Shown one piece after another: positions 3,647 through 25,524 of a stretch of 25,524 nt of DNA. The notes beneath the pieces are model-generated. The model saw nothing but the letters and a program-made list of their open reading frames with translations. It was not told where the DNA came from and searched no databases. Every line of letters begins with the position of its first letter. Position 1 is the stretch's first letter. Origin of the DNA: a virus (Duplodnaviria > Caudoviricetes); IMG/VR virus record IMGVR_UViG_3300037722_000081, positions 1 to 25,524 of that record, one strand, 5' to 3'. The translations under genes and the position numbers were made by a program.

Positions 3647-4884
3647 TGGGCATCCTATCCTCAATCCTGGAGAAACGCTCTCAGCATCCCAGGGACCCCG
3701 CTATAGCTGAATGGCTGGGCGGTGGTGTCAACACGGCGGCAGGAATTGCCGTTACCCCCGATTCGGCCATGCGTGAGGCTGCCGTTTATGCCTGTGTCCG
3801 AGTTTTAGCCGAGTCAGTCGCCCAACTCCCCCTATTTGTCTACCGCCGCAGGAAATCGGGCGGCAAAGACAAAGCGTCCGATCACTCACTGTACGAAATC
3901 CTGCACAATCGTCCAAATCGCTGGCAGACCAGCTTTGAGTATCGCGAGTCTCTAATGGGCGCGGTTACCCTACGGGGTAATGCGGTCAGCCGAATTGTGG
4001 CTACTGGCGGCGGTGGTGTATCTGAACTGATTCCGTTAATGCCTGACCGGGTGAAGATATTCCGAGCACCTGACGGCAGGCGGGCTTATCGCTATCGCCC
4101 TGAGAACGGGCAGGATGAAATCCTGTTACAGAATGAGGTTCTTCATGTTCCAGGTCTATCGATCGATGGACTTAGCGGACTAGCTCCAATTACCTATCAC
4201 CGCGAAACTGTTGGCGCGTCTCTTGCATTGCGTGAGTTTGGATCCCGGCTGTTTAAAAACGGCACACACATAGGGACCGTGTTCGAGCATCCTAACAAGC
4301 TGACAGAATCATCACAGAAGAACCTGAAAAAGAGCCTTGATGACAATTTCTCAGGTGTCGCAAACGCTAATAAGGCGATCATCCTGGAAGAGGGGATGAA
4401 GATAGCGAAGCTGGGGATGACCTCCGAGGATGCCCAGTATCTCGAATCGCGTAAATTCTCCCGCTCTGAAATTGCGTCTATCTTCCGCGTGCCCCTCTAC
4501 AAAATTGCCGGCGATACTGAATCGACAAAAGGCTGGAGCACCCTGGAGCAGCAGTCAACAGACTTTGTGACGGATACCCTTATGCCGTGGCTTGTGCGTA
4601 TTGAACAGGCCATTGCACGGGATCTGCTTACCGCCACTGATAGGCGTAATGGGATATTCGCAGAATTTAACGTGATGGGGCTTTTGCGCGGCGATGCCGC
4701 TGCACGGTCAGCTTACTACACAGCGAGATTTAACACAGGGTCCCTGTCTCCGAACCAGATCCGTGAACTGGAAAACGAGAACCCGCAGGATGGCGGTGAC
4801 GTGGCATTTGTACCGATGAACATGATCCCGATTGACCAAGTAGGGCGGTCTGATGGAAACACAGAGGAGCCGGATAATGGCTGA
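3643..4884 (+). CDS. Portal protein, HK97 family
   Basis: AVYACVRVLAESVAQLPL, PNRWQTSFEY, LRGNA, ILEEGM, EIASIFRVP and SPNQIRELEN motifs. 413 aa. Confidence 0.95.
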   Translation: MMGILSSILEKRSQHPRDPAIAEWLGGGVNTAAGIAVTPDSAMREAAVYACVRVLAESVAQLPLFVYRRRKSGGKDKASDHSLYEILHNRPNRWQTSFEYRESLMGAVTLRGNAVSRIVATGGGGVSELIPLMPDRVKIFRAPDGRRAYRYRPENGQDEILLQNEVLHVPGLSIDGLSGLAPITYHRETVGASLALREFGSRLFKNGTHIGTVFEHPNKLTESSQKNLKKSLDDNFSGVANANKAIILEEGMKIAKLGMTSEDAQYLESRKFSRSEIASIFRVPLYKIAGDTESTKGWSTLEQQSTDFVTDTLMPWLVRIEQAIARDLLTATDRRNGIFAEFNVMGLLRGDAAARSAYYTARFNTGSLSPNQIRELENENPQDGGDVAFVPMNMIPIDQVGRSDGNTEEPDNG

Positions 4885-21309: not shown

Positions 21310-21711
21310 ATGAGTAAAATCACTCCATTAGCTTGTACTAACCTCGGTTGGCTTTCCAAATATAAGTGGCGTCTGGATGAGACCACAACAGTAAGAATTC
21401 CTGTATATGGCATTAGTGCAACTACAAAAGACAGGTGGTTAACACTAGCACCAAATGGTGATCTTACCTATATACGTGGCTACTGTTGGGATGGTGGTAG
21501 CGGCCCAACATGGGATACTGAAAACGTGCGTTATCCTAGTATGGGGCATGATGGCCCTTATCAGCTAATGCGAGAGGGAATAATAGATAGCCAGTGTAAA
21601 TATATCATTGATACGGAACTCGAAATAGCATTGCTAAAGGAAGGTACAAATCCAATAAGGGCCAGAGTATGGTATCTTGGGGTTAAATATTTCGGATGGA
21701 TGAGCCTATGA
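21310..21711 (+). CDS. DUF1353-like protein
   Basis: GYCWDGGS.P, HDGPYQ and RARVWYLGVKYFG motifs. Confidence 0.7.
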   Translation: MSKITPLACTNLGWLSKYKWRLDETTTVRIPVYGISATTKDRWLTLAPNGDLTYIRGYCWDGGSGPTWDTENVRYPSMGHDGPYQLMREGIIDSQCKYIIDTELEIALLKEGTNPIRARVWYLGVKYFGWMSL

Positions 21712-22106
21712 AAAACGAACCTTTCAACTGCGGTATAACGCTAATTAATTTCTCCCCAAGAGAATTCTTTTGCCCGTGCTGCGGCGTGGAGAAGATGAAT
21801 AAAACCACGCTGCTACGCATCCAGCGGCTGCGCACGGACTACGGAAAGCCGATCGGCGTTATCAAAGGCGGCGGATATCGATGCGAGAAATATGAACGAT
21901 CGGGAACATCCGCTCACCGAGAGGGCCGCGCAGTTGATACGGCTCATCCACGCGCCGATCATTTCCTGCTTGTCGATTTGGCATTCAAGCACGGATTCCG
22001 TGGCATTGGTGATAAAAATATCAGTGGCGTCTACCAACTGCATATGGATGATGCGGAAGATATCCCGGTAGTCCGGCCACGCCCCTGGAAGTGGACATAT
22101 CCGTGA
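21708..22106 (+). CDS. Endolysin, peptidase M15 family (Zn peptidase)
   Basis: NF...EF.CPCCG, GYRC, SAH..GRAVD and LHMD zinc-ligand motifs. ATGA overlap with the upstream gene. Confidence 0.85.
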   Translation: MKNEPFNCGITLINFSPREFFCPCCGVEKMNKTTLLRIQRLRTDYGKPIGVIKGGGYRCEKYERSGTSAHREGRAVDTAHPRADHFLLVDLAFKHGFRGIGDKNISGVYQLHMDDAEDIPVVRPRPWKWTYP

Positions 22107-22342
22107 TGGATGAGACCATGTTAATTTCTATCCTGCTTGCCCTGGTCGGTGCCCTATTCGGGTTTCTGGTAGCGATCCTGAGCTGGATGGGCGGCAAGGT
22201 TTATAACAAACTCGCCGAGATGGCCTCGAGTCTGCACCACGTGGAGAACGATCTTCGCGGTCAACTGGCAGATTTAGATCGGAGGATATACGTCGTCGAG
22301 CGGTCGTGTGGTATAGATGTCACGGATCGACGACATACGTAA
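22106..22342 (+). CDS. Single-TM protein with coiled coil (holin-like or inner-membrane lysis protein)
   Basis: Hydrophobic N-terminal helix followed by a heptad-like segment. TGATG coupling to the endolysin; last + strand gene. Confidence 0.55.
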   Translation: MDETMLISILLALVGALFGFLVAILSWMGGKVYNKLAEMASSLHHVENDLRGQLADLDRRIYVVERSCGIDVTDRRHT

Positions 22343-22391
22343 CCACGTCGTTCATCTATATTTGCCTGGGTCCGATGAATATCTGTTAGCC
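22337..22391 (+). other. First recombination site of the cassette array (attI-like or degenerate attC)
   Basis: Ends in core GTTAGCC (22385-22391), preceded by CGATGAA-TATCT (box plus 5-bp spacer). Also has TAAC at 22340-22343 and a TTCATC/GATGAA inverted repeat, but spacing is not canonical attC. Confidence 0.45.
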
Positions 22392-22571
22392 CGCTAGATA
22401 CCGGCCTATTTCTTTCGTATGCCCGCAATGCTCGCACTCCCAGTATTCGACTTGCTGGCATCCATCATCAGCCCAGTCAAGCTTCATCGGCTTCATGTGG
22501 CATACCGGAGGCCGCTGGCTAACAACAGCATCAACATGGGCCGACTGAAGCTGCGCGGTCTCTGTGGTCAT
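22386..22571 (-). CDS. Cassette 1 ORF: small Zn-ribbon-like protein
   Basis: PVCH..M...W.CEHCGH. The TAA stop is the complement of the TTA in the GTTAGCC core. RBS (AGGGG) and ATG lie inside the next attC. Confidence 0.65.
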   Translation of the reverse strand: MTTETAQLQSAHVDAVVSQRPPVCHMKPMKLDWADDGCQQVEYWECEHCGHTKEIGRYLAG

Positions 22572-22622
22572 GTTCAACCCCTGTGGGCCGCTCCAGGCGG
22601 CCAGTTATGCTGGGCGTTAGCC
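22517..22622 (+). mobile_element. attC integron cassette recombination site (106 bp)
   Basis: R'' GGCTAAC, 5 bp, L'' CAT(C)AAC ... L' GTTATG, 6 bp, R' GTTAGCC. Extra-helical C and an imperfect inner stem are present. Confidence 0.85.
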
Positions 22623-22653
22623 GCCGCCAGTCGGAACCAGCTGCGGCAGTTGG

Positions 22654-22854
22654 TTACGCCGGCTCGTAGTTGGCCTCGAAGAAAGCCTGATCAACCAGCC
22701 ATTTGTCGTCAGGGTTAGCGGGGTTGATTGCGATCATGTCGCCCTCTTTCGGGTTGCCTTCGGGCGACACGCTCACACCAGCCAAATCTTCGCCGGGAAC
22801 GTAGTGGCGCATGGGCTGAATCGACTTCTTACGGTAGTTTTGAAACTCGCTCAT
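22654..22854 (-). CDS. Cassette 2 ORF: hypothetical protein
   Basis: MSEFQNYRKK...GDMIAINPANPDDKWLV...FF..NY (66 aa), wholly between two attC sites. Confidence 0.75.
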   Translation of the reverse strand: MSEFQNYRKKSIQPMRHYVPGEDLAGVSVSPEGNPKEGDMIAINPANPDDKWLVDQAFFEANYEPA

Positions 22855-22872
22855 CTTCGTTTTGTTCCAAGC

Positions 22873-22959
22873 GGCTAACAAAAATTTCCACCCGACGCCG
22901 GGAAGTCCGGCGCTTGCCCTGGCCGCCGTGCAGGGCGCGGGTGAAATTAGGCGTTAGTC
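22873..22959 (+). mobile_element. attC integron cassette recombination site (87 bp)
   Basis: R'' GGCTAAC, AAAAA, L'' TTT(C)CACCCG(A)CGCC ... GGCG CGGGTG AAA, TTAGGC, R' GTTAGTC. Both canonical extra-helical bases are present. Confidence 0.92.
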
Positions 22960-23127
22960 GTCAAGGTCGATCACCTTTGAAAAAGTGCCAAGATCGCTGT
23001 CGTTGTCGTTGCACCACACGTCTGCGCTTGCCGCAGTATCAAATGTGCGCGCTTCGCCGTCTGCTACAGTTACCAGTCCAGCATCGTAAATTCTTCGCTC
23101 CCCGCTCCATGTTAAAATCACAAACAT
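22954..23127 (-). CDS. Cassette 3 ORF: 57-aa acidic hypothetical protein (not in the ORF track)
   Basis: Hand translation gives MFVILTWSGERRIYDAGLVTVADGEARTFDTAASADVWCNDNDSDLGTFSKVIDLDD. Strong AAGGAGG RBS. The TAA stop lies in the R' core of the attC at 22953. Confidence 0.8.
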   Translation of the reverse strand: MFVILTWSGERRIYDAGLVTVADGEARTFDTAASADVWCNDNDSDLGTFSKVIDLDD

Positions 23128-23147
23128 GCTCGCCTCCTTAAAAAGCC

Positions 23148-23226
23148 GCCTAACCCGGCGGTCAAGTTCGCTACACTTCGTTCCGCTCGGGCGGGCTATC
23201 GCCCGCCGCTTACCTTTGCGTTATGG
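23148..23226 (+). mobile_element. attC integron cassette recombination site (79 bp)
   Basis: R'' GCCTAAC, CCGGC, L'' GGT(C)AAG ... internal hairpin GGCGGGC-TATC-GCCCGCC ... L' CTTACC, TTTGC, R' GTTATGG. Confidence 0.88.
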
Positions 23227-23228
23227 CG

Positions 23229-23453
23229 CTACCAATCCACGCCAGCAACATCAAACTCGACGCTGCACTCCGGGCAAATGGCTTGGCACTTGAATTGCTC
23301 ATGTGAATCCATCCAGCATTTCTCTGGCAGCACGTTATTAAGCAGCCAGCCGTCATCATTCAGGCTAGTGTCGGCGACCAAATCAAAATAATGCCCGCAC
23401 TCAGGACATTCCGCGTTTAACTCAATTACAAGAGTGGGTTTTACTGGTTCCAT
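23229..23453 (-). CDS. Cassette 4 ORF: Zn-finger protein (two CPEC motifs)
   Basis: CPECG...CPECS. Stop lies 2 bp from the GTTATGG core; the 5' end overlaps the 3' end of ninB. Confidence 0.75.
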   Translation of the reverse strand: MEPVKPTLVIELNAECPECGHYFDLVADTSLNDDGWLLNNVLPEKCWMDSHEQFKCQAICPECSVEFDVAGVDW

Positions 23454-23904
23454 CCAAAACATCCTCGTAATATTTAATTGCCGGATCAGACCAGATCACA
23501 CCAAGATCACTACCGTAGGCATACAGAAATGCCACGAATGCAGACGCCTCAGCGACTCGAAACCGTCTGCTACTCGCCCTGATCGTGACAGTCCGCATGC
23601 CGTCCAGGCTTGGTATTACTCGGCCTGGATGCGATAATGGCGTGCCCTGTCGCTTCATTTCTTCGCTGAACTCGTCTATCAGAAGGGCCTTCCAGGTCTC
23701 ATCATCGTATTTTCGGCCATCTACCTCAGTCCGTGCGATATCTGCTATCAGAGCATGATATAGACGCTCCTGATCGCGGGATTTGCTGGGTCGCTGGATA
23801 GTGACCTCGACCGGTCCGCCGATCAGAGCTTTCATCACGGCATCGGACGCAACAGCCATGCTGTCGCGCATGTTATATGCCTCTTTGATGATGATTGATC
23901 TCAC
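23422..23904 (-). CDS. ninB: NinB/Orf-family recombination protein (copy 1)
   Basis: KSRDQERLYHALIADIA, ETWK, PSLDG, SSRRF...F...LYAYG..LGVIWS match the NinB/YbcN pattern. Confidence 0.8.
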   Translation of the reverse strand: MRSIIIKEAYNMRDSMAVASDAVMKALIGGPVEVTIQRPSKSRDQERLYHALIADIARTEVDGRKYDDETWKALLIDEFSEEMKRQGTPLSHPGRVIPSLDGMRTVTIRASSRRFRVAEASAFVAFLYAYGSDLGVIWSDPAIKYYEDVLDGTSKTHSCN

Positions 23905-24122
23905 GATTCAGATCCCTGCTCTACCATCCTGAGAGATGCCGGACCGCCAACGTAGTGCCGGCCGTCCGACGTGAACGACTTTATGTATTTCCTGCCGTCG
24001 AATCTTGTAAATTCGACATACACGGGATATGTATATCCTGGTTTAGAAGTGGATGTTACTATTCCCGGGCCGAAGGATTTTGAATAAACCCTATCGCAGG
24101 ACTTGAATTTTATACCGCTCAT
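23901..24122 (-). CDS. Small SH3/KOW-like hypothetical protein
   Basis: FKSCDRVYSKSFGPGIV...YPVYVEF...FTSDGR; GTGA overlap with ninB. Confidence 0.65.
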   Translation of the reverse strand: MSGIKFKSCDRVYSKSFGPGIVTSTSKPGYTYPVYVEFTRFDGRKYIKSFTSDGRHYVGGPASLRMVEQGSES

Positions 24123-24173
24123 GGATCACATTCCTGTTACAGGAAACAAAATTGTTGGCATATTGACATATCA

Positions 24174-24752
24174 TCAATCAATGCTGATAATTTCCCTAAA
24201 CCGTTTTTCCATTTCATCACCCGCAGCCAACGCAGCAGCCCGCGCAGCCCGCGCAGCCCACGCAGCCCGCGCAGCCCACGCAGCCCGCGCAGCCCACGCA
24301 GCATCCCCCGCAGCAGCCCCCGCAGCAGCCCACGCAGCAGCCTCCGCAGCCCACGCAGCATCCTGCGCAGCCCACGCAGCATCCCCCGCAGCAGCCCACG
24401 CAGCAGCCTCCGCAGCCCACGCAGCAGCCTCCGCAGCATCCATATCTTCTTTTGTGGCATCGCAGGTCGCGTACCGCTCTGCTACATCCAGAGCATCGAT
24501 AGATCGCTGGTCGGTCATAAGATGTTGCACCTTGCGTGCGCACCACACCGCGTACAGTATCCATTCCCGGTCATGATCTGGAGCTGACCGTGTGCACCAA
24601 AGTGCATCATCCAGACCGTTACTGTCGATGATCGTCTCAAAGCTAAGCGGCTCATCGTCCGCTTTCGTTTTTCCGAGATGCGTTAGCAGTTTCTCCCAGC
24701 CATCTGTGCAGGGTGAGCACTCCCGGATTTTATTTAGCGTGGTGTAGATCAT
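24174..24752 (-). CDS. Ala/Trp-repeat protein (Imm5-like domain)
   Basis: AVWCAR.V...D.RS..ALDVAERYA followed by AAWAA/AA.AA repeats, a common phage family. AAGGA RBS and its own promoter. Confidence 0.75.
   Translation of the reverse strand: MIYTTLNKIRECSPCTDGWEKLLTHLGKTKADDEPLSFETIIDSNGLDDALWCTRSAPDHDREWILYAVWCARKVQHLMTDQRSIDALDVAERYATCDATKEDMDAAEAAAWAAEAAAWAAAGDAAWAAQDAAWAAEAAAWAAAGAAAGDAAWAARAAWAARAAWAARAARAAALAAGDEMEKRFREIISID
24223..24438. repeat. Coding tandem repeat of 9- and 12-bp GCAGCC-based units
   Basis: Repeated GCAGCCCGC / GCAGCCCAC / GCAGCAGCC units encoding (A)AWAA(R/E/G). Confidence 0.9.
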
Positions 24753-24788
24753 GCATATGTCCTTTTCGGCATCTATATGGTTGACGTG

Positions 24789-24823
24789 TGGGCATTATGC
24801 CCATGCCTGTTGACTGCTGTCAA
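24789..24823 (-). promoter_or_regulatory. Leftward sigma70-type promoter overlapped by two palindromes
   Basis: Minus-strand TTGACA (24823-24818), 18 bp, CATAAT (24799-24794). Palindromes TGGGCAT-T-ATGCCCA (24789-24803) and TTGAC-TGCT-GTCAA (24810-24823). Confidence 0.7.
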
Positions 24824-24830
24824 TAGTCAT

Positions 24831-24851
24831 CCCCTTAGCTATGCGTTATGC
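24831..24851 (+). mobile_element. Right half of an attC site (L'-R' only)
   Basis: CCC-CTTAGC, TATGC, GTTATGC has the same layout as the right arm of the 23148-23226 site. No left arm is visible; the promoter occupies that position. Confidence 0.55.
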
Positions 24852-24854
24852 CTC

Positions 24855-25235
24855 TTAGTCATCTTCTGCGGTTTCTATCTCGCCACCAACATGCAGCGCC
24901 ATCAGCTTCTGCCCGCAGCATCCGTAGCTGGCTACCCATACCGGCGTCAGCGCGCCCATCACGAAATCGCCGCCTTTGTAGCCACATAACACTTGGCCCA
25001 TCGCGGCTTTGCACTCGGCCAGTAAATCAGCGGCCGGGCGCGTGCCTTCCTCCCGCCCAAACGCCAAGTCGCTGTAGTAGCCACGGTAGCTGTGCGCGCT
25101 GTTCAAGTTCGCAACCTCTGCGCCTTCAGGCATCGCTTCCAGAGCGTCGATCAGCTTGCCTAGCATCATCTGCGTTTCAGCGCGCTCTCGTTGCCATTGC
25201 GCGCCCATTCCGTCCATCAAAGCCTGTATGTTCAT
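24855..25235 (-). CDS. Cassette-like ORF: phage hypothetical protein
   Basis: 126 aa with HSYRGYYSDLAF and GYKGGDFVM...TPVWVA. Bounded by GTTATGCC (24845) and GTCATAAC (25259-25266). Confidence 0.8.
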   Translation of the reverse strand: MNIQALMDGMGAQWQRERAETQMMLGKLIDALEAMPEGAEVANLNSAHSYRGYYSDLAFGREEGTRPAADLLAECKAAMGQVLCGYKGGDFVMGALTPVWVASYGCCGQKLMALHVGGEIETAEDD

Positions 25236-25524
25236 TCACGTTCCCCATTGTTGTCACCGTCATAACCTGTCAGTCCAGCGGACGTCGTTGACTGATCCAC
25301 AGTCACATCTACAAACCACTTTTCATAGGCCAGCAATGCTGGCTCAGACCATGAAACCTGATGTTCAGCGCCGAACGCATAAATAATTTCAATCAGGTCA
25401 GAGAATTCTTTTTTTCTAAGCTTTCTTGTCGATACCCCAAGAACAACAAATCCGCCATCTATTCCAGGCACTGCCCTTTGCTTTTTTAATGACGCGGTAA
25501 ATATGTTTTTCCAATCCTCTTCCT
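25232..25524 (-). CDS. ninB: NinB/Orf recombination protein (copy 2; 5' end outside the window)
   Basis: The frame is open to the window edge: EEDWKNIFTASLKKQRAVPGIDGGFVVLGVSTRKLRKKEFSDLIEIIYAFGAEHQVSWS, closely resembling the lambda NinB C-terminal half. Confidence 0.88.
   Translation of the reverse strand, partial: EEDWKNIFTASLKKQRAVPGIDGGFVVLGVSTRKLRKKEFSDLIEIIYAFGAEHQVSWSEPALLAYEKWFVDVTVDQSTTSAGLTGYDGDNNGERE
25260..25293 (+). mobile_element. Degenerate attC (R''-L'' intact, R' lost)
   Basis: TCATAAC, CTGTC, AGT(C)CAGCGG, ACG, TCGTTGACT. No GTT at the expected distance downstream. Confidence 0.6.

Follow-up and report, generated by a model that had tools for sequence, protein, structure and literature searches.

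An antisense integron cassette array with a likely attI dock in a phage genome fragment

Why would every gene of an integron cassette array run against the polarity of its own recombination sites? Integron models assume that strand selectivity exists for placing cassette genes under the cassette promoter Pc, and the question arises from a 25,524-nucleotide stretch of phage DNA (IMG/VR record IMGVR_UViG_3300037722_000081, positions 1 to 25,524; Caudoviricetes), referred to here in its full length as the window. Near its right end, five short open reading frames (ORFs) lie among attC sites, the recombination sites of integron cassettes, and all five are antisense to the attC top strand (Table 1). 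We find that such arrays are a real and widespread integron variant, apparently unpublished, whose mode of expression we infer. For the window itself we judge it probable, reading from the sequence, that the array is attached to an attI dock, descends from a phage-encoded integron that lost its integrase, and is read from a phage early promoter towards attI; the dock and the integrase-less descent are each likely components of this reading.

The polarity of the sites comes first. On the + strand, sites A, B and C all present a left arm of AAC, 5 nt, three paired bases and an unpaired C, with GTT at the right, and they carry the R''/R' cores, paired L boxes with an extra-helical base and 5–6 nt spacers of attC sites. 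The aadA7 attC likewise has an unpaired C on the left arm of its top strand, according to the part of the PMC9892861 supplement compared here, and next to bacterial integrases the bulged-base rule assigns 198 of 202 sites a top strand opposite to intI. The preliminary description of this locus had used the extra-helical base to define + as the attC top strand, and the identical bulge in all three sites upholds this. A covariance model from 60 bacterial attC sites, with its structure supplied by hand and its training sites oriented by the same bulge rule, so that it is not fully independent, also chose + (A 34.1, B 48.3 and C 25.4 bits); only site B was scored on − as well, at 8.5 bits. Thirty shuffles of the window produced two matches at a score of at least 5 (one 5, one 8), compared with three in the window itself, plus site C at score 4. 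No Rfam match was found. [quoted passage not shown] Where a complete integron has an integrase gene, the window holds only an 11-codon stub.

The genes were then compared with this polarity. All five are on −, as the ORF list confirms, where a canonical cassette would carry a sense ORF. At 22386 and 22954, the stop is formed by the TTA of the core itself (cores at 22385 and 22953); the stops at 23229 and 24855 fall 2 and 3 bp past 7-mer cores, and that of ORF2 (22654) lies 31 bp past. A codon model favours the − frames of ORFs 2–5 (+6 to +20) and gives the four overlapping + frames −2 to −30. ORF1 calls for more caution, as it starts within the attC A loop and has a weak codon score (2.6); its one homologue matches at 81% over 69% of the length (the last 42 residues) and differs at the N-terminus. 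Complementary R'/R'' ends enclose one short ORF in each of the five cassettes (7/7, 7/7, 6/7, 6/7 and 6/7 matches). Thus, the strand and polarity given in the preliminary description hold, as do its core-overlapping and core-adjacent stops. A caveat that it had omitted concerns the completeness of the cassettes: only cassettes 1–3 end in a whole attC, two of the five lack their own site, and cassette 5, 1.4 kb away from the others, is flanked by two half-sites. Over 50 arrays, no gradient of decay away from the dock was detected (rho 0.04, p 0.52), and the decay seen in the window is therefore anecdotal.

Table 1. Positions of the array components and neighbouring features within the window.
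Feature	Position	Strand	Remarks
attI-like dock (likely)	22352..22391	+	core G/TT (slash, crossover point) at 22385/22386; left end of array
11-codon stub (likely intI relic)	22320..22355	−	ATG 32 nt from core AAC, same offset as the L767 integrase start
Cassette 1 ORF	22386..22571	−	61 amino acids; Cys/His-rich C-terminal part; start in attC A loop, stop in core
attC A	22517-22622	+ (top strand)	106 bp; cassette-end match 7/7
Cassette 2 ORF	22654..22854	−	66 amino acids; conserved phage protein
attC B	22873-22959	+ (top strand)	87 bp; cassette-end match 7/7
Cassette 3 ORF	22954..23127	−	57 amino acids; strong ribosome-binding site; stop in core; one cluster at 88%
attC C	23148-23226	+ (top strand)	79 bp; cassette-end match 6/7
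Cassette 4 ORF	23229..23453	−	74 amino acids; two CxxC pairs; phrog_4173, E 2.6e-5; end match 6/7
R''-like core of cassette 4	23454-23460		only remnant; own attC missing
Right half of attC (L' to R')	24833..24851	+	19.5 bits, best in window on both strands (right-arm profile with 5-nt spacer)
Cassette 5 ORF	24855..25235	−	126 amino acids; phrog_12889, E 4.3e-20
Left half of attC (R'' to L'')	25260..25283	+	16.4 bits, second-best left-arm score in window; overlapped by 3' end of second ninB
Endolysin	21696-22106	+	phrog_894
Last late-block (head-tail-lysis) gene	22103..22342	+	3' of endolysin; borders dock; from ORF list
Non-cassette block	23422..24823	−	ninB, two phage ORFs, sigma-70-like promoter 24823-24794 facing cassettes 4 to 1
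Phage ORF, phrog_18326	24174-24752	−	PHROG match

Is this inversion peculiar to the window? Searches with two attC patterns gave an estimated 710 and 520 matching viral stretches, of which 160 loci with long flanks were analysed with a custom script that finds sites and calls genes (a first viral attC pattern scan had been dropped as too loose, its matches being mostly chance). Among 256 distinct cassettes in viral contigs, 232 were antisense, 8 sense and 3 mixed, and 13 had no gene call; counted per contig group (n = 79), 72 were antisense and 4 sense, with 1 tie and 2 lacking calls. A further 112 short viral loci yielded 28 cassettes (20 antisense, 0 sense, 8 with no call). In contrast, 80 bacterial intI loci, 35 of them with cassettes, gave 101 sense, 7 antisense and 5 mixed among 142 cassettes, and no call for 29 (viral versus bacterial orientation, Fisher p 1.6e-68). 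The same held for a same-pattern bacterial control, in which the first pattern matched 33 of 401 Pseudomonadota genomes and 30 loci plus 20 wider regions from them contained 40 cassettes (31 sense, 4 antisense, 4 mixed, 1 with no call). A crude longest-ORF test without a codon model still called 196/256 viral cassettes antisense versus 17/142 bacterial ones. In phage H101, the top strand of four attC sites is +, and the three genes annotated in the intervals lie antisense on −; two H101 sites, which we paired by eye to the part of Table S3 of PMC9892861 compared here, were recombined by IntI1, better as bottom strand. P12002L is unscored, as its sites were missed by the detector. The preliminary description had named three outcomes that would refute it (attC sites assigned to −, + frames as the real genes, random orientation in other phages), and none occurred; the phage-type inverted cassette class that it proposed exists and is far from random.

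Viral antisense genes resemble bacterial sense genes in their fit to the cassette: the stop is the core TAA in 94/232 versus 49/101, and the median start offset is 30 versus 27 nt. They differ in reading into the next site (76/232 versus 3/101). Terminator asymmetry was considered as a cause of the polarity and rejected, since the top-strand T excess is tiny in phage sites (5.77 versus 5.29) and reversed in bacterial ones.

One might suppose that the phage acquired the complete array from a host lineage with antisense chromosomal integrons, host integrons serving as the reservoir. A few antisense cassettes do occur in bacterial arrays (7/142 and 4/40), and our bacterial controls consist of Pseudomonadota only; the antisense and mixed bacterial cases, on the other hand, include toxin-antitoxin-like pairs (by eye) and several weak calls. 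Cargo also argues against capture. In a PHROG search of 80 of the 231 antisense genes, 26 matched phage families, among them 5 DNA methyltransferases and 2 Lar-like proteins, and when 346 viral cassette proteins were compared with 182 bacterial cassette bodies, a single match appeared, in sense. ORF2 has 34 matches counting itself and is also matched by 6 phage records; as a lone query it found no viral loci, and its alignment as query retrieved 378 stretches in viral contigs. Of the 80 viral loci that contain ORF2 relatives, no more than 5 show a credible attC close by; these are all antisense, and in 2 of them the site is immediately adjacent. Most ORF2 copies look like plain phage genes. 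We therefore regard capture from hosts as unlikely, and the earlier idea of host integrons as a silent reservoir has no support in this small sample. The reservoir seen consists of other phages, some with their own integron integrase.

These integrases allow the polarity of gene and site to be separated. A search confirmed 559 viral stretches, and the following counts refer to the best 80 of these. Beside phage intI, the attC top strand lies opposite intI in 97/101 sites, and 61 cassettes comprise 47 antisense, 6 sense (all in L718), 1 mixed and 7 with no call; therefore, cassettes, attI and intI share one direction. A site was present within 2.5 kb upstream of intI in 43/80. All 7 phage integrases tested passed the TIGR02249 cut-off, including L767, L713, L721, L746 and L749, the five with window-like docks, which group together in a quick tree (88 in the Shimodaira–Hasegawa-like approximate likelihood ratio test, SH-aLRT); the same tree scatters phage integrases and leaves a single origin unsupported. 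In L713, L746 and L767, cassettes, dock and intI are co-directional with downstream excisionase-like and phage-integrase-like genes (by eye).

With this reference, a second explanation can be weighed, namely that ordinary sense cassettes were inserted backwards by top-strand recombination (Nivina 2016), or by an integrase with switched strand preference. Top-strand insertion happens at a low rate (as reported in the part of PMC5027507 consulted), and some related cassette bodies are paired with unlike attC cores, divergence setting in soon after R''. Backward insertion would, however, flip gene and attC together, while here attC polarity to attI and intI is normal and the gene alone is flipped. 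Moreover, across 514 viral sites, the attC stays with the body upstream on the top strand: mean core identity is 0.70 for 40 pairs sharing the upstream body only versus 0.50 for 24 pairs sharing the downstream body only. Among the matches listed, at least 3 pairs with 99–100% identical upstream bodies and 96–100% attC identity split inside or just after the R' core. Contigs from run X2 match 22622-22956, 22952-23223, 23220-23378 and 23205-23455 at 95–99% and then diverge, the borders coinciding with the cores that belong to cassettes 2, 3 and 4; cassette 3 (22952-23223) stands whole in another X2 contig. Borders at cores and an attC that travels with the upstream body therefore indicate recombination at the usual G/TT, with the hairpin at the 5' end of the gene. 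Backward insertion is largely refuted already, and we consider it very unlikely.

The same comparison bears on whether the array is a dead relic, its sites real but its hairpins now serving as terminators or providing phage recombination with short homology, with no integrase acting. The lack of intI in the window and the sites lost from two of five cassettes fit such a relic, as does a survey of antisense-array virus records (50 of the 72 groups), in which 0/50 passed the IntI cut-off although 21 of the 50 are at least 90% complete. It is at odds with the recurrence of cassettes 2–4 in other contigs (95–99% identity) beside different neighbours, with borders at the cores, and with cassette ends matched 7/7 in 180/256 viral cassettes, as in 94/142 bacterial ones. 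We hold a dead array to be improbable.

Two side observations concern how cassettes are remodelled. The first 44 bp of cassette 2 (22616-22659) are common to X1 and X4 contigs that go on into a different gene, with the junction at a second GTTA (22653) carrying the ORF2 stop, and cassette 2 may be a chimera of a new gene in an old cassette shell. In two groups of loci (L340/L366/L385/L331 and L411/L441/L494/L497/L508), bodies are 86–97% alike and attC cores 46–78% alike, which suggests that hairpin cores may be swapped between cassettes.

At the left end of the array the preliminary description overlooked two features, an attI-like dock and a likely intI relic start. Of 37 letters in the dock, 29 are identical to the site before intI in L767, and it also resembles the sites before intI in L713, L721, L746 and L749. 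Three contigs, from runs X1 (which may be the same sample as the window), X2 and X4, have only 22352-22389 in common with the window, with different sequence on both sides in X1 and X4 and on the left in X2. Contigs from X2 and X4 also share the adjacent 22103..22342 gene up to 22346, the X4 contig being dissimilar afterwards. On this evidence, 22352-22391 is likely an attI docking site. As an exact pattern, it had 0 matches in metagenomes; looser patterns (16 viral and 69 metagenome matches) were rejected, none having intI at the site or convincing similarity, and their high scores being circular. More generally, among 57 viral arrays with a placeable first-cassette start, 13 have GTCTA at −11 from the first core, versus 1 of 1211 control cores, and the motif also occurs at first-cassette starts beside bacterial intI. 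No fixed dock context was found among 18 arrays: 8 continue in gene direction, 7 meet convergent genes and 3 are other. The stub beside the dock is likely the relic start of a lost intI. Tentatively, and by eye, the X1 and X2 contigs extend its ATG as M-T-N-L-Q-R-A, similar to M-N-L-Q-E-A in L767.

How would the cassettes be expressed? A Pc reading into the array from upstream of attI was not found in a consensus scan, the nearest + match (21934, 9/12) lying in the endolysin gene. The array sits where the + late block, with terminase, capsid, tail and endolysin genes up to 22342, meets a − block that begins at 23422 with ninB and other small genes. The − promoter at 24823-24794 matches the sigma-70 consensus at 11/12 positions, and we infer that the cassette genes are read in a phage transcript running leftwards, which may start at this promoter for cassettes 4 to 1 and would start beyond the window for cassette 5. 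Two ninB genes (23422-23871 and 25232-25524, the latter phrog_72) share 33% identity over 80 amino acids; the 3' end of each reads into the R'' end of a cassette, overlapping the cassette ORF, and the block that separates them, with its promoter, may have divided the array. The GC-skew flip near 22,500 tracks the coding strand and is uninformative on replication direction; bottom strands on the lagging-strand template recombine more, according to the part of PMC5371416 consulted. Several neighbouring features were recorded in passing. Two short palindromes (24787-24823) overlap the − promoter as possible operators, and a + sigma-70-like match (24163-24191, 11/12) faces the 3' end of the phrog_18326 ORF, antisense to it. 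The protein of that ORF has a long Ala-Trp-Ala repeat whose length varies among related contigs. The gene bordering the dock has no PHROG match, and its product appears holin-like from its position and hydrophobic N-terminus.

Several points weigh against an antisense array descended from a phage integron and read leftwards. The Pseudomonadota-only controls limit the bacterial contrast, and the gene calls come from a custom script whose output was compared by eye with three annotated records. Among phages there is also a minority class with sense cassettes (TJE1, L315, L353 and L361), and the phage contig L306 combines intI with a sense cassette. Stop-free frames are fewer on bottom than on top strands (0.47 versus 1.03), and the flip therefore does not ease read-through. 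The window's dock lacks GTCTA, belongs to another type and is assigned by similarity alone, and in a 25.5-kb fragment intI could lie elsewhere. Finally, a − hairpin with a T run (23161-23146), whose fold is no better than those of shuffles, could end the leftward transcript before ORFs 3 to 1.

The sense exceptions have features of their own. In L306 (2055-4057), the sense cassette resembles a small multidrug-efflux gene amid tail genes. TJE1 (HQ225832, L124) carries sense cassettes at 244-1519, where a methylase reads through R'' into the site. In L315, whose called cassettes are sense, first-cassette starts on both strands near 4000-4600 have a similar motif upstream of them, which suggests that the dock is present twice.

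Taken together, the antisense array could be explained as follows. In intact relatives, intI retains its normal position and orientation with respect to attI and attC, but stands within a one-directional early gene block; therefore, transcription would reach the array from its far end, and expression would be confined to antisense cassettes. In the window's lineage intI would have been lost, and an integron integrase acting in trans, whether encoded by a co-infecting phage, by a prophage or by the host, would cut the folded bottom strand in the usual way and insert circles at the dock. Each cassette brings a hairpin in front of its own gene, and the cargo consists of ordinary phage accessory genes, often DNA methyltransferases. 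The antisense layout likely lets phages shuffle their own accessory genes with an integron enzyme.

More tentatively, and with doubts outweighing our confidence, one may picture a mirror-image integron economy in which phage integrases and integrase-less docks trade antisense phage-gene cassettes, polarity filters out host cassettes, and phage genes with and without attC expose cassette birth. If the filter is real, host cassettes, many of them anti-phage (bioRxiv 10.1101/2024.07.02.601686, in the part consulted), would go unexpressed after landing in a phage dock, as would phage cassettes in a host integron. Such a filter fits two host-like sense cassettes found by eye in phage arrays (L342 and L438).

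In a large class of phage arrays the chemistry is unchanged while the genes face the other way; this represents a second way of using the integron, one that equips phages for site-specific exchange of accessory genes, methyltransferases among them. The origin of new cassettes is stated as unknown in the part of PMC4889954 consulted. ORF2, mostly a plain phage gene and sometimes a cassette, bears directly on how cassettes arise, and so does ORF1, in which the end of a gene is fused to a hairpin providing its start.

Phage CALINs are known (Qi et al. 2023, PMC9892861), and our literature search, thin on subscription papers, found no published report of systematic antisense cassettes or of the present layout. 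The arrays described in PMC9892861 share with ours integrase-less attC clusters in phages, DNA methyltransferase cargo, and sites recombined by IntI1 at G/TT with bottom-strand preference. The text of that paper, in contrast, is silent on gene-to-attC polarity ('antisense' and 'opposite' occur 0 times) and calls H101 typical, whose genes lie antisense in our analysis; nor is a phage-type intI within an early gene block described there, the comparison having covered the text but neither the figures nor the Dryad data. With canonical integrons, as portrayed in the parts of PMC4889954 and PMC5027507 consulted, the phage arrays share attC anatomy, cassette-end match, crossover, and the place and direction of intI relative to attI and attC. 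Unlike them, the phage genes point towards attI, with the hairpin lying ahead of the gene; Pc would give way to a phage promoter, from which newly inserted cassettes would be the most distant. Treponema-type atypical integrons (PMC3607928, in part) also have intI and cassette genes in one direction, but there intI is transcribed towards attI, whereas in the phage relatives intI runs away from the dock and the cassette genes are flipped, which sets them apart from that type. Insertion at attG secondary sites (bioRxiv 10.1101/2022.09.11.507474, in part) likewise yields integrase-made insertions away from the intI gene; it uses a chance GWT, whereas the first site of the window is a conserved dock shared with phage intI loci.

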